A stretch of DNA of 64,000 nucleotides from Eledone cirrhosa (GCA_964016885.1 OZ024742.1:68944001-69008000), one strand, 5' to 3'. Shown: positions 1 through 35,202, counted from the stretch's first letter. Translations and numbers: made by a program. Notes: generated by a model from the letters alone, not told the origin.

Positions 1-1356
1 TAAGAAGGAATATGACGTCACTTTCAGCTTATATCTGGAGTCTAAAAGACAACCACACCCAATATAAGTTACACTGGGAGATCCTAGCTAGGGCTAGATC
101 GTATAACGGAAATAAAAGACCTTGTGACCTCTGCGCCGCTGAGGCCCTGGAAATACTCTACGCCACAGACCACATCTTAAACAAAAAATCTGAGGCAATT
201 TCGGCTTGTAAACATAAATTGCACAAAACTTTCCTGTATTACAGCCCCACGTTATACCCTAACGGATAGCACGATCTATACGTGGATATTTTACATCTTG
301 ATGTGGGAGTTAAGTATATGTTTTGTTTATTCCTTTACTTATTTGCATAGGTAAGTATATATTACCCGTATGTTTTGTGAAGGTATGTATACCTTCTCGT
401 ACGTATATTTGACTGGTATGGCGTATAATTTTTACATATTCTGGTATTTAGGGTTTGGCTATGTGTATACGGGAGTTTTGCGTCTGCGTGAGTATGCAGG
501 TTCGTACGTATGGTGGGTGTGTGTATATGAGTACTTCTTGTTTTAGTTGACTTACGTCTCCGAACATTCGTGTATTTATATGTAGGTATGTGTGTGCACT
601 TGTTATATACGTATTTATTTACTTATATACGTTTATATAATTATTTATTTATTTGTACACAAGCATACACACACACATATTTATATGTGCCGGGTTTGTT
701 TACCTATGGTAAGGTTTTGCGTATGCTTGTGTATGTACGTATCTGTTTGCGTGTATGTATTTATTTGTTTCTATTACTTCTGTATTGTATTTATTTACTT
801 TGTTCTTAACTCTGTAGCGGAGATTCATTTGGTCTCCTAGTTAGAATTTTAGTCTACGACTTCTGCTATACCATTTACGTGGTTTTGTCTTTGCGTGCTA
901 TTGTTCTCCACGCTCCACATATGACTTATTATCTTCGTTTTTTCGTTCATTGCCAGAGAACGTCTCTATGCACCACCTAAGAGAACATTAGTCTACGACC
1001 TCTTTTATACCATAAACGTGGTTCTGTCTTTGCGCGTAATGGTTTTTCACCGCTCCTATTAATGACGTATTATTCGTTTTTTCCCGTTCTTTGCCAGCGA
1101 ACGTTTCCACGAACCAAAGTATCGTCTTCCTGTCTTCCTCCGGTTGCAACGTTTTTTGAAATATCCAGTTCTGCGTTTACAGATTGACTTTGTTAGTTTC
1201 AGAAGATCCCGTTAAGGGTGAAAGCAGCGATTCTTTGCTTAAACTTTAATCTGTTATTTTAATAAATATTTGCTCTACGGTTCTTATATATTTGATATAT
1301 ATTTATCCTTATCGAACCCTCTTTGGATTTTAGTCTTCAAATTTATTATTATTACT
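1..1356 (+). mobile_element. Penelope-like element family A, 3' part (end of GIY-YIG endonuclease, long 3' region, hammerhead)
   Basis: ORF 12..269 TSLSAYIWSLKD...CDLCAAE...LNKKSE..S.CKH. Near-identical to 29886-31180 and homologous to 15555-17020. Ends in (TA)n. Confidence 0.8.
1179..1254 (+). ncRNA. Type I hammerhead ribozyme variant (core CAGAAGA), PLE family A
   Basis: ACAGATTGA..AGTTT-CAGAAGA-T-CCC gttaa GGG-T-GAAA-GCAG..TTGC-TT-AAACT-TTAATCTGT. Stems I (two-part), II and III all pair. Copies at 3640-3715, 16846-16924, 31090-31165 and partial at 17140-17180. Confidence 0.65.
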
Positions 1357-1898
1357 ATATATATATATATATATATATATATATATATATATATATATAT
1401 ATATATATATATATATATATATATATGTATGCTGGTGAAGAATGCGATGGAAAATAATAAGTATCTATTTACTATATTCAAATGAATATTATAGATAAAG
1501 ACAGAGAGCATGTTAGATAGGTAGATAGATGGATAATTCATATGTGCATGCGTGTGAGTATTTATTTTCTATAGAAATAGAAGCATCACCGTAACATTAA
1601 TTACATAATATAGTCTAATAATAGGGCTTATGAACCCACTGAACGGAAAAAGGGAAAAAAATGGGTATCAGCACACATGGGAGTCGAACACACACCTCTT
1701 ATTTGCCGGACGAATACGCTACCATATATGCTTATATGCATATATATATATATATATATATGTGTGTGTGTGTGTGTGTGTGTGTGTGTGTGTGTGTGTG
1801 TGTGTGTGTGTGTGTGCGCGCGTGTGTCTGAGTGTGTGCGTGTGTGTGTGTGTGTCTGTGTGTCTGTGTGTGTGTGTCTGTGTTTGTATATATATATA

Positions 1899-2037
1899 CA
1901 GGGTGGACCAAAAGTCGTGATACATAGGAAAAATAATTATGTTTTTATTAGAACAGAACACGTTAAAAAATAGATAAATATGGAAACTTAAAAATGTAAT
2001 TATTTTTCCTATGTATTGCGACTTTTGGTCCACCCTG
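1899..2037. mobile_element. Tc1/mariner-type MITE
   Basis: ~40-bp terminal inverted repeats CAGGGTGGACCAAAAGTCG.../...CGACTTTTGGTCCACCCTG with TA on both sides. Confidence 0.85.
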
Positions 2038-2795
2038 TATAAAGAAAAAGGGGTGAAGTTTCGTTTATAAGTTTTCATATATACATATAAACATACCAAC
2101 ACATACATAATATACATACATAGGTTAAAGTAGGGATATTTCTTAAAAATTTAAAAATTCGTTTTGATTTAATAGAGACAGTTAGAATCGTGGCATCTGT
2201 AATATATTGATAATAATAATAATAATAATCTGACTTGCTAAACTGATATTATTTATAGGTAAATCCCGCCGAGGTTAACTTTGCCTTTCATCCTTACGGG
2301 GTCGATAAAATAAAGTACCAGTAATACACTGGAATAATTGTTGGCCTTCTGCCAATAATTATAAGTCGATTTTAATGCATCGAAACAGATTTAGAATGAG
2401 AAATCTTTTAATTAACATTAAAGAAAAATGAAGTCTGTTCATTTACCTTAGCCAGTCTATATTATTGTAATTCGTTTAATTTTTTAGAATATTGGACTTA
2501 GGAAGCATTCCGTAAATTAGGTAAGGTGTAAACACCAGAGTGCTTCAGAAAATGTGAATGCTTACGTTTTGTATATAACGACAAGGTAAACCAGTCATTA
2601 TATACAATATGTGCACAAGATGTTTATGAAATTTCAGGGCAGTATAGAAATAAATCATTTATATTTATGTTGGACCCTTGTAATTGCGGGAGGTGGTTGA
2701 CATATACTACTTCTTGCGCCCTTGTGTATAATATGCGCAAGAGTGTTAGATTAAAAAAATAACACATACAAATAATTATATATTATTGATATTAC

Positions 2796-3278
2796 CTCTA
2801 AACGAAGTTCTCCGATAGGTGGGGCGGCGTAAGGTACTCCAAGATAATTTTCTGAAAACTTTCCTGGTAAAGTCTCTTTGACAAAACCTCTAACTTTACC
2901 ATATATTGTCTCTCGTATTGCTATTTTTTCTGATCCTTCTGGTGACGAGGGCAATGATATTGCTAACTGAGGTTGTGTCACATCTTGTGCTGCTGGTGGT
3001 TGTAATTGTCTTTTCTGAAGTACAGATTGAGGTAGCATTTGTGGTACATCAACTCTGGGTAACATTTGTGGTTCTTGTAGTGATTGATGGACGGTTGATG
3101 TTGCTTGGGGTAGTGTTGTTGGTGATACTAATGATGATGATGACAGTTCTCCTAAATGTCTGTTTTTGGTATCGCCAGTGATAGATGAGGTAAAAGATGA
3201 GCAAACAGCGATAGAAGCAAACAAAAGGAGGATAAAGGCATGCCGCCACCACATCTTCATCATTAAAGTGGTGATCAT
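2796..3278 (-). CDS. First coding exon of a carboxylesterase/cholinesterase-family (COesterase, neuroligin-like fold) secreted or membrane protein (gene B); gene continues beyond the left edge
   Basis: Signal-peptide-like MMKMWWRHAFILLLFASIAVCSS, a S/T/Q/P-rich linker, then IRETIYGKVRG...YLGVPYAAPPIGELRLE, the canonical N-terminal type-B carboxylesterase motif. Ends at GAG|GTAAT donor (phase 0, 161 codons from ATG 3278). Probable acceptor ctctgctctcatag| at 3305-3306. The true ATG could be 3278, 3263, 3260 or 3254. Confidence 0.85.
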
Positions 3279-32825: not shown

Positions 32826-33654
32826 TATATGTGGCATTAATCCGTTCTGTTGAATGAAACACTTATTGAGATGTAATTGAAGGCACAATAAAGTTGTTTG
32901 ATGTGGTCTGTAGCCTTGTTATGACAAAATCGGTGGTTTGTAACCATTACCAAATAGGTAAACTGCATCTACTGTAAATAGGATATGCACGTAAATGGCA
33001 ACATACCCTTTCTTCTCTCAACGTGATCTGCACGAATGGCGGGAAAATTCCTCACTCTCACTTCAGTTTCCAAATGGGAGTTGTCAAGGACGTCTCAGTT
33101 AGGATGACGAAAGCTATGTGGTGCGTGTGACCGGCAACTGAATTCTCAATAAATCGAATCATACATTTTTGTGCATTCATAGATGGGATAATGTCTTGTG
33201 CATTGAGCAAAATTATCGAAGCAAGAATAGGGGCTTGGTTACATTGTTTCGGGGGACATTGAATTATTCTTATAATTTAGATGGCAGCAATGAGGGAGTT
33301 TGTGTGCAGAGGTAAGGACCTTGAGAGGCGGAAGCAGCTACTGTCAACAGATTTCCGTCTCTAAGAGTCTTTACCTGATATTTTTAAGGTATTTTATTTG
33401 CAACTGCCTGTAGTTTCAGGTATTTTCTGCGACTGAGCTTCTTACATCATCTTATAAATAAAGTTCGAAAATTATATATATATGTATATATATATATATA
33501 TATATATATATATATATATATACAAAACAAAATTAAGATAAATTGAATTAAATTAAATTAAATCAAATTAAATTAAGGGTGTCATGTCAGATAGACATGC
33601 GCCATATCACCCGTAAAATATGCTCCAAGATTCTAATGAGTAGATCCGAGCATT

Positions 33655-34288
33655 TTATATCAACTAGAAATTGATTGAGATATAATTAAACATATGAAAC
33701 AATCACAGGGGATAATTTGTAAAAGTGTGTAAGCCCACATAGCTAGGTAGGTAGCTAAATAAAGTTTAACTAGAACTTCAAAAATAGATACCTTATAATT
33801 TGATTAATCTTCCTCGTATATATTCCATTAAAGAAATATATTTCAGCAATTAATCGATTGGTAAACGACAGAAGCCAGGTCCTGGATTTTCAACAAGGAA
33901 GAGGTCCAGTGATCTGTGTTTACGCGTCAAGTTCAAATCAGCGACTGGCCAGTAACACGTGCTGTATTTTTAGTTGATACAGCACGTGTTACTGGCCAGT
34001 CGCTGATTTGAACTTGACGCGTAAACACAGATCACTGGACCTCTTCCTTGTTGAAAATCCAGGACCTGGCTACTGTCGTTTACCAATCGATTAATTGGTG
34101 AAATATATTTCTTTAATGGAATATATACGAGGAAGATTAATCAAATTATAAGGTATCTATTTTTGAAGTTCTAGTTAATCTTTATTTAGCTACCTACCTA
34201 GCTATGTGTGCTTACACACTTTTACAAATTATCCCCTGTGATTGTTTCATATGTTTAATTATATGTCAATCAATTTCTAGTTGATATA
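33655..34288. repeat. Inverted repeat (~315-bp arms, ~9-bp loop)
   Basis: Centre CACGTGCTGTAT ttttagttg ATACAGCACGTG; arms nearly identical. Confidence 0.9.
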
Positions 34289-34412
34289 TATATATATAAC
34301 CAAAGATTAGTATGGTTCGTTGGTTACTCAATGAATACAATTTTACAATAGATTAGTATACCAATACTGGAATTGAATAATCAAGACCGTAGCAGTATGT
34401 CATATATCAAAT

Positions 34413-34488
34413 CATATATTTTGTCTGATGAGGGCGTACTGAAAAAGCAAGACAGTACCTTTGAAATATATATATAATAAAGTATATA
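34413..34488 (+). ncRNA. Minimal type I hammerhead ribozyme (relative of 13703 copy)
   Basis: CTGATGA (34425-34431), GGGCGTACTG..CAGTACCTTT, GAAA, TATATATA, TA. Stem II covaries relative to the 13.7 kb copy. Confidence 0.8.
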
Positions 34489-35202
34489 TTATGAGAATAT
34501 TTTTTATTTGTTAATATTTTGAATAATATATATATATATATATATATATATATATATATATATATATATATATATATATATATAAACGTTTGTATACGTA
34601 TAATAAAGCCCAAACAATGCAGGTATGGACATAGAATAAAGAATGCAAATGCAAAAGAAATTGTTGACAATTAGTCTTTTACCTTAGATTTATTTAAATG
34701 TTCTTAATTTTCGAGATAATATCTCTTCTTCGAAGAAGAGATATTATCTCGAAAATTAAGGACATTTAAATAAATCTAAGGTAAAAGACTAATTGTCAAC
34801 AATTTCTTTTGCATTTGCATTCTTTATTCTATGTCCATACCTGCATTGTTTGGGCTTTATTATACATATACAAACGTTTATACCTCATTACACAATACTT
34901 CAAGTGAACTATAACTTCCTCCTCATATATATATATATATATAGTTACGCGCAGTCACATTTTTATATTTGAAACGTTGGCTGTAGATTCATTCCAAATA
35001 TTGAAGCTTCAATAAACTTTTTCCTTTTTAAATTTACTGCTTAGGCAAAATCTATGATTCAGTCTGGATTTTATTAAGTTCTTTGGCGAATAATATAATT
35101 TGTTTCCGACTATAGTCCATATTTTAAGGACAAACAATGTTTCCAAATCTATAAAACCGAAATGAAGATATCGGCTTTCGGGTTTGTTTTCATTTTTTGT
35201 TA

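Follow-up and report, generated by a model that had tools for sequence, protein, structure and literature searches.

We have analyzed a window of 64,000 nts from Eledone cirrhosa (GCA_964016885.1, OZ024742.1:68944001-69008000, positions counted from its first letter), in which short elements embedded in (TA)n microsatellites pair a forward segment with an inverted one. We propose, with a probability of about 0.52, that these are 5′-truncated 3′ ends of Penelope-like elements (PLEs) together with retrozyme-like repeats, placed head-to-head in (TA)n, likely by a PLE reverse transcriptase (RT) primed at TA, and that the hammerhead ribozyme is at most a weak hot spot for the joints. An original prediction on this DNA, made from the sequence alone, had gone further, and proposed that the ribozyme fixes the point where the cDNA turns back. 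The elements belong to known kinds and their architecture is already published; the ribozyme effect is a lead. What is new here is modest: retrozyme-like units with a PLE insertion signature, motifs with a long stem II, a conserved core variant, and an unproven bias in the position of the joints.

We observe directly the TA flanks, the recurring family-specific TA ends, type I hammerheads of the architecture found in Hydra-clade PLEs, and two PLE parents, those of families A and H. The prediction of TA-targeted units of PLE type with type I hammerheads is borne out by the flanks, by the recurring ends, and by matches to a covariance model (R1, described below). All (TA)n runs of at least 12 nts are confined to positions 1-36063 of the window, which has a G+C content of 40%. 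Among the copies having them, the TA-joined termini of family A recur in 4/4 cases (distal) and 3/3 cases (proximal), those of family C in 2/2 at each end, those of family G in 3 and 2, and the distal one of family H in 2/2. Every proximal terminus lies at a TA microhomology of 3-4 nts. The non-inverted copy at 29875-31177 terminates at the family A proximal site, and the family D proximal end (27988-27991) recurs as a TA-joined loose end in at least 4 contigs of one public sequencing run (X1). Such fixed TA-joined ends are the "tail" pattern of PLEs, which is described in PMC8557442 and tied to two RT start sites in PMC11167929 (here and below, what we say of a cited PMC or bioRxiv paper refers to passages of it). 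The features are, with a strand where one is assigned:

1..1355, plus strand: 3′ part of a Hydra-clade PLE (family A), with the end of the endonuclease open reading frame (ORF) to ~269, 3′ untranslated region (UTR), ribozyme and tail; (TA)n-joined distal terminus at 1355
1179..1254, plus strand: family A type I hammerhead; U4-to-A core change at 1200, stem II of 3 bp whose base is a U.U, cleavage predicted after 1240; 17.1 bits, E 0.048
3614..3727: family A unit with a TA run on either side; joint 3632/3633 between inverted 3′ tail and forward piece; forward start ~7 nts 5′ of the ribozyme outer helix; arms non-overlapping
3783..4183: family G unit; inverted arm joined at 3912-3916 (5-nt microhomology); sense arm starts 10 nts 3′ of the cut
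6176..6557: family B palindrome; 188-nt arms with 1 mismatch, 6-nt spacer 6364-6369; minus-strand hammerhead core 6361, cut after 6241
6724..6916: family C palindrome; apex 6860, 1-nt spacer, 40 nts 5′ of the predicted cut, in presumed stem II
13704..13766, plus strand: family F canonical type I hammerhead; second copy 34417-34486; 31.9 and 29.1 bits with R1
14190..14241, minus strand: family J hammerhead; G5-to-A change, 8-bp stem I; matched by R1
14429..17016, plus strand: older broken Hydra-clade PLE with DKT, CxCX5C and CxH; ribozyme 16870
17040..17187: family A unit; inverted tail (reference 1264-1355), 3-nt insertion 17137-17139, forward piece from the stem II loop (reference 1214); arms adjacent, non-overlapping
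18016..18652, minus strand: family G partial tandem; ribozyme 18272-18320; 5′ end ~55-60 nts 3′ of the cut; templated insertion
18806..21213, plus strand: broken canonical PLE with RT and C-terminal GIY-YIG; its last 186 nts are family H
21226..21351: family C unit; apex is a 2-nt spacer, 21253-21254, at the predicted cut site
21901..24404, plus strand: second broken canonical PLE; RT 22021-23298, GIY-YIG remnant; ends at (TA)n
25930..26812, minus strand: family G tandem; 429-nt monomer, hammerheads 26171 and 26600; apex 26764-26776, 163 nts from the nearest core
27035..28099: family D; inverted 327-nt arm with inner end in stem II (reference 27662), 3-nt microhomology; 686-nt monomer with terminal repeat
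28171..28936, minus strand: family E partial tandem; 522-nt monomer, hammerhead 28334-28422; apex 28873/28874, the center of the 8-nt palindromic helix III
29875..31177, plus strand: family A copy, 5′-truncated and not inverted; its end is the proximal TA-joined terminus; ribozyme 31111
33656..34288: palindrome with 312-nt arms and a 9-nt spacer; apex without ribozyme; adjoins a family F unit
34585..34924: family H palindrome; apex 34731/34732, within the 5′ core of a degenerate minimal hammerhead

Judged by its sequence, family A derives from a Hydra-clade PLE, of which it represents the 3′ end. Translations, and an alignment with relatives, identify upstream of it the remnants of a broken ORF with DKT, a CxCX5C linker, CxxC and CxH motifs and a C-terminal endonuclease, and the assignment is made because of DKT, CxCX5C and CxH, the features given for the TA-targeting Hydra clade (PMC8557442). 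The (TA)n target and the 3′ hammerhead are both present, as a Hydra-clade PLE requires. Family A shares with the published Hydra-clade elements (PMC8557442; Craig et al. 2021) the C-terminal endonuclease, these motifs, the (TA)n targets, a type I hammerhead in the 3′ region, and inverted 5′-truncated copies and tails, while its tail is longer, ~90 nts versus 30-40. Family H is identified in the same way as the 3′ end of another PLE, the element at 18806-21213. That parent and the element at 21901-24404 encode an RT with a DKG motif plus a GIY-YIG at the C terminus (Pfam RVT_1 and GIY-YIG), have 21 longer relatives, and are canonical endonuclease-bearing (EN+) PLEs, so the RT/GIY-YIG machinery that had been proposed as mobilizer does stand adjacent, in broken form. 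All PLE copies in the window are broken or truncated. In the older Hydra-clade copy at 14429-17016, the 5′ inversion lies within the ORF (14429-14468 inverts 14672-14711), remote from the ribozyme. A minus-strand family J unit (14074-14428) abuts its inverted head, possibly a head-to-head joint between two different families.

Families D, E and G look like retrozymes. Family G is a tandem with a 429-nt monomer and two hammerhead motifs 429 nts apart, one of them with a core change; family E is a partial tandem (522-nt monomer) of which only a partial second unit is seen; and family D, with a 686-nt monomer, shows return jumps of 637-689 nts in at least 5 joints across 4/4 sequencing runs, and is therefore tandem. 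By this anatomy (tandem, non-coding, type I hammerhead), known here from sequence alone, the three families fit the metazoan non-LTR (lacking long terminal repeats) retrozymes, which have one type I hammerhead per monomer and a palindromic helix III (PMC7229834; bioRxiv 10.64898/2026.07.22.740005). They differ in monomer length, 429-686 nts versus the typical 150-450 bp, in the 48-50 nts of stem II in D and E, and in showing the insertion signature of PLEs, with a TA target, an inverted head and two fixed ends, which the passages on retrozymes in those papers do not describe. PLEs have been proposed there as the mobilizers of retrozymes, a link argued in those passages from co-occurrence and phylogeny. 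The insertion anatomy of D, E and G ties retrozymes to the PLE machinery independently of where the joints fall.

All seven joints named by the original prediction are present at their places, save that the family H apex is one base off, at 34731/34732. Their description as fold-backs stands for those with symmetric or overlapping arms. It fails at 3632 and 17137 (there 17136), where the arms do not overlap and we have inversions instead. At 17137 the inverted arm corresponds to reference 1264-1355 and the forward one to 1214-1262; one self-copying cDNA cannot yield such arms, and the geometry is that of twin priming. In the twin priming of L1, reportedly described by Ostertag and Kazazian in 2001, an inverted upstream part is said to be joined to the adjacent downstream part. 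The unit at 17040-17187 has that same geometry, and 3614-3727 has it plus a deletion; L1 differs in priming at poly(A) and not at TA microhomology, and twin priming does not explain the symmetric palindromes with overlapping arms. Symmetric joints, with spacers of 0-13 nts, are found at 6366, 6860, 21253, 28873, 34731, 26770, 33972 and 31458. In families C and H, where a second copy permits the test, locus-specific letters are common to both arms of one locus, and therefore one template served both. For the joint at 28873, the best explanation is pairing via the 8-nt helix III palindrome. The joint at 21253 is the best single case for a cleaved 5′ end; its 2-nt spacer could be untemplated, or could be what is left, in decayed form, of the two bases that precede the cut. 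At 21226, 18652 and 26764 there are small duplications and double switches of a kind that we take to resemble polymerase-theta end joining.

In the mechanism that we propose, the GIY-YIG endonuclease would nick (TA)n, and the free target ends would pair with short UAU stretches at the distal or the proximal of two AU-rich sites in the RNA and prime there. The cDNA would halt early, on a template that is mostly uncut, re-ligated or circular RNA. Closure could then take either of two routes: joining to a second cDNA primed from the other strand, giving the non-overlapping arms at 3632 and 17137 with 0-5 nts of microhomology, or a snap-back in which the cDNA copies itself into a symmetric palindrome. 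Only for a minority of joints (21253, and perhaps those 6 and 10 nts past a cut) would the inner end be fixed by self-cleavage.

Regarding the ribozymes, the hammerhead motifs of the window are, at the level of sequence, genuine motifs, with self-cleavage only predicted. A descriptor that allows a long stem II finds 6 canonical type I hammerheads in 1-36000, the range over which they were counted, while 20 block shuffles give 2 in total (~0.1 per shuffle). These are in families B (6361, minus strand), F (13712 and 34425), G (26171, minus), D (27614) and E (28414, minus), and all have the type I features: CUGANGA and GAAA cores, a UH cut triplet, three helices and an open stem I. With stem II limited to 60 nts the descriptor overlooks B, and the limit was widened for the final scan. 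Model R1 is based on an alignment of 26 ribozymes from 80 metagenome loci (L001-L080) that encode relatives of the family A protein. In that alignment 86% of the cells are paired and 13/14 pairs have two-sided changes, a level reached in 0/500 shuffles, though these covariation counts lean towards the structure, as the 26 were chosen for their fit to it in a scan allowing one core change. Hydra-clade ribozymes of the 80 loci have a recognizable form, often with U.U at the base of stem II and a near-palindromic helix III of 6-8 nts. In those loci R1 has 65 matches, 26 of them the training sequences; in the window it has 13 matches up to E 5, and the 11 top-ranking ones, none past 36000, correspond to the F, D, E, A, G and J motifs. 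The type I motifs of D, E, F and G are recovered by both descriptor and model, and R1 overlooks B, C, H and the 16870 copy of A. An Rfam search of the window with E up to 5 has no hammerhead family among the best 150 of 214 matches.

Family A carries its motif at 1200, 3661, 16870 and 31111, with three helices present. Its core is CAGAAGA (U4-to-A) in 4/4 complete copies, whereas U4 is retained in 26/26 of the aligned Hydra-clade ribozymes. Two stem II changes among the copies preserve pairing as U.G. The U4-to-A change is preserved across two A subfamilies whose ORFs are only ~79% identical. Either the variant is tolerated, or the fold persists in the absence of cleavage. Family B has a complete type I hammerhead (6361, minus) that short descriptors and standard models overlook; its stem II is ~100 nts long (6241-6361, minus), the extended-helix insert folds with z −3.7, and the joint leaves only 3 bp of stem I. 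Stem II measures 48 nts in D (27621-27668; canonical hammerhead 27606-27692, predicted cut after 27682) and 50 nts in E (28358-28407). These motifs with a long stem II, as well as the conserved U4-to-A core, would be worth assaying for cleavage.

Of the ribozymes at the named joints, B and D are complete and of type I, as is A apart from the change in its core. In the window, family C retains just the 3′ half of a hammerhead, made up of GAAA, helix III, GUC and a stem I strand, and the CUGANGA half is absent there; an exact-pattern scan for the C motif in viral contigs had no match, and the 5′ half was not recovered. Family H is a degenerate relic of a minimal hammerhead, recognized by eye from the extra base after A9 and a palindromic 15.2-16.2 (PMC4209133), which neither descriptor nor R1 finds. 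Single-sequence folds of A, D, E, G, C and H are no better than shuffles, and fold energy is not counted as evidence for them. Two further scans had no match, one for the exact pattern of the A motif in metagenome contigs and one of viral contigs with the Hydra protein alignment.

Does the ribozyme set the joint? Relative to the predicted cut, the joints lie at about −68 and −27 (A), about −125 (B), −40 and 0 (C), −21 (D), −6 (E), −27 (H) and +10 (G). Seven of these 9 ribozyme-associated joints are 6-125 nts upstream of the cut, and one is exactly at it; therefore the template of the seven was uncut or re-ligated there, and cleavage did not set those joints. The nine joints are spread over stem I, the core, the loop and an arm of stem II, helix III and the cut site, six different places in all. 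The mapping of joints onto hammerheads claimed by the original prediction thus holds for 9/14 joints inside or within 10 nts of a ribozyme, two of which (E at 28873, G at 3912) add to the seven it named. It breaks down at five joints of ribozyme-bearing units that miss the ribozyme (14468, 26764-26776, 18652-18666, 33968-33976 and 17410) and in three inverted units that have none (29387, 5048/5197 and 31458). Two of the five misses are weaker, as 33972 is put in family F by adjacency only and the 17626 motif of the 17410 unit lacks stem I.

To control for truncation length, we shuffled truncation lengths among families. Under this permutation, 8/14 window joints inside a ribozyme compare with a mean of 4.1 (P 0.012), and 9/14 inside or within 10 nts compare with 5.4 (P 0.023). 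The full permutation is partly circular, because the ribozyme limits of B and C are set by or assumed from the joint. Without B and C, and with two D joints from public contigs added, 5/13 joints fall inside (null 3.3, P 0.20) and 6/13 within 10 nts (null 4.4, P 0.23). The comparison of a hammerhead scan with inversion joints that the original prediction had called for, run here within the window, yields its six canonical motifs and a majority of joints at or near a ribozyme, and loses significance once B and C are removed. Among symmetric palindromes that keep any ribozyme, the apex is inside it in 5/6, or in 5/7 if 33972 belongs to F (P 0.04-0.10 at an assumed chance of 0.4). Not counted as joints were 1899-2037 (a short element with terminal inverted repeats), 9518-9558 and 13937-14112.

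Outside the window, the 80 related loci, which were chosen for ORF sequence and so favor long arms, have 9 inversion joints linked to a PLE. Two of these are at the ribozyme, L016 in stem II and L062 at cut+6; the seven others miss it (L042, L049, L061, L076, L078, L018 and L025, the last two jointed in the ORF with the ribozyme off the contig). This count excludes L022, whose palindrome is at the end of its contig; L023 and L059, whose inverted pieces have no tie to the PLE; L003 and L034, where contigs overlap or another element stands tail to tail; and self-palindromes of 70-86% that resemble unrelated inserts. For family D, we used public contigs and reads from 4 runs in 3 studies under 2 organism labels, run X1 being possibly the window's own source. 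The opposite-strand joints listed there, 27580/27871 and 27824/27934, are at the ribozyme in 0/2 cases. This test has low power, with an X1 depth of ~900-5000 over the ribozyme versus 9000-244000 in most other bins, likely from divergence of other subfamilies there, and its counts are lower bounds over the joints and ends listed, with 270 loose ends and 2675 pieces beyond these.

An alternative that deserves attention, even if we find it unlikely, is that the insertion route is the same and the ribozyme has no effect on the joint. The ribozyme lies 40-250 nts from the 3′ end, a region in which most truncated cDNAs come to a halt, and a single-copy unit can be recognized as ribozyme-bearing only when the joint spares part of the ribozyme. 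The restricted permutation, the low counts in the D contigs and in the unrelated Hydra loci, and the scatter of joints over six ribozyme parts all agree with this, as do the same inverted structures in Naiads, which lack canonical hammerheads (PMC8557442). But the full permutation controls for truncation length and is still at P 0.012-0.023, one apex is exactly at a cut and another at the center of a palindromic helix III, and the ribozyme joint of D is 437 nts from the 3′ end. At the other extreme, the ribozyme, through a cleaved 5′ end or an RT stall in its fold, would fix the snap-back point and delimit the palindromic units. The 9/14 window joints, the arms of 21226-21351 that both end within 2 nts of the predicted cut, the joints at cut+10 (3912) and cut+6 (L062), which could be trimmed cleavage ends, and the L016 copy ending in stem II speak for it; all the same we judge it improbable. 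Most matching joints are upstream of the cut, most joints of related loci miss, and there is no one inner-end position in all copies, which differ by 40 nts in C and by ~42 nts in the two short A units, and fall in three places in G. Also, the one PLE that has been studied in vitro did not require cleavage and gave no reads that terminated at the cut (PMC11167929). The units are 5′-truncated copies with variable inner ends and not ribozyme-delimited elements, and on both this and the fixing of the joint the original prediction, in the form given, is not supported.

That the palindromes are amplification, sequencing or assembly chimeras is very hard to credit, and here the original prediction, which took them as real, is upheld. 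The joint of the D locus itself is absent among the joints listed in the 4 runs, a weak point in favor of chimeras, as it was placed at the edge of a stretch. But the arms differ by substitutions, 1/188 in B, 2/59 in C, 2/150 in H, 11/330 in D and 5/312 in I3 (0.5-3.4%; in family E, 0/66 with one gap), the outer ends are at recurring family-specific TA junctions, and unrelated metagenome contigs have the same architecture. Several results weigh against our own reading of TA-primed PLE insertion with a weak ribozyme hot spot: the restricted permutation, the joint of D missing from those listed, and the identification of PLE parents for A and H, with no autonomous partner shown for B, C, D, E, F or G. 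Further, apex spacers of 0-2 nts are too tight for a simple snap-back and would call for trimming or end joining at a later stage. The positions of the joint ends also show no relation to local fold stability, and the ribozyme regions are not the most stable folds of their elements, so stem stability finds no support as a cause of the bias.

A bolder claim, which we consider rather unlikely, is that the hammerhead leaves a footprint on PLE integration, with cleavage and folding creating preferred points for RT stops and snap-back, and with long-stem-II retrozymes bearing the Hydra-PLE insertion signature. If true, the footprint would be a genomic read-out of the role of the hammerhead in PLEs, a role stated as unclear in PMC8557442, and direct anatomical evidence that PLEs mobilize animal retrozymes. 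A genome rich in head-to-head units offers a direct test of that role. In the open-access literature, supplements aside, we found no paper linking hammerhead position to PLE inversion joints, and the passages of PMC13282606 and PMC8969392 add nothing on the placement of joints relative to the ribozyme.

Insertion of PLEs as inverted pairs was already known, as the original prediction said, with head-to-head palindromic architecture in PMC3846280 and PMC8557442. The inverted pLTRs (PLE pseudo-long terminal repeats) of rotifers (Arkhipova et al. 2013, PMC3846280) share with our units the head-to-head copies, the palindrome at the joint, one arm longer than the other, and a proposal of self-priming. 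The main text there does not use the word "hammerhead", so its joints are not placed relative to ribozymes, and the window units differ in being mostly short and non-coding. Also published are opposite-strand pairs of minimal hammerheads 100-700 bp apart (PMC4209133) and, in one in vitro PLE system, two RT start sites with cleavage dispensable (PMC11167929).

Other units of the window deserve mention. Those at 17262-17872 and 29195-29757 are also TA-ended with an inverted 5′-truncated head; the first has the 17626 motif, a hammerhead-like core and stem II without stem I, and the second has no ribozyme. At 4545-5727, an inverted duplication of ~500 nts of microsatellite-rich DNA surrounds a TA-flanked 78-nt spacer, the minus strand of which is like a PLE 3′ end, possibly a capture of flanking DNA. 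An isolated 56-nt palindrome at 31431-31486 has no TA flanks. In the 3′ UTR of the PLE at 21901-24404 there is a degenerate sense minimal hammerhead (24113-24150, plus strand) and a weaker antisense look-alike (24060-24085, minus strand). In unrelated metagenome contigs, other hammerhead elements share TA runs with Hydra PLEs (L055:319, L068:2299, L034:1423-1474, L046:2633-2964), as they do in the window. Finally, at 36000-64000 the window switches abruptly to RT-like ORFs of other retrotransposons, among them an ORF of 1061 codons at 56115-59300, with no TA runs and no hammerhead-model matches.

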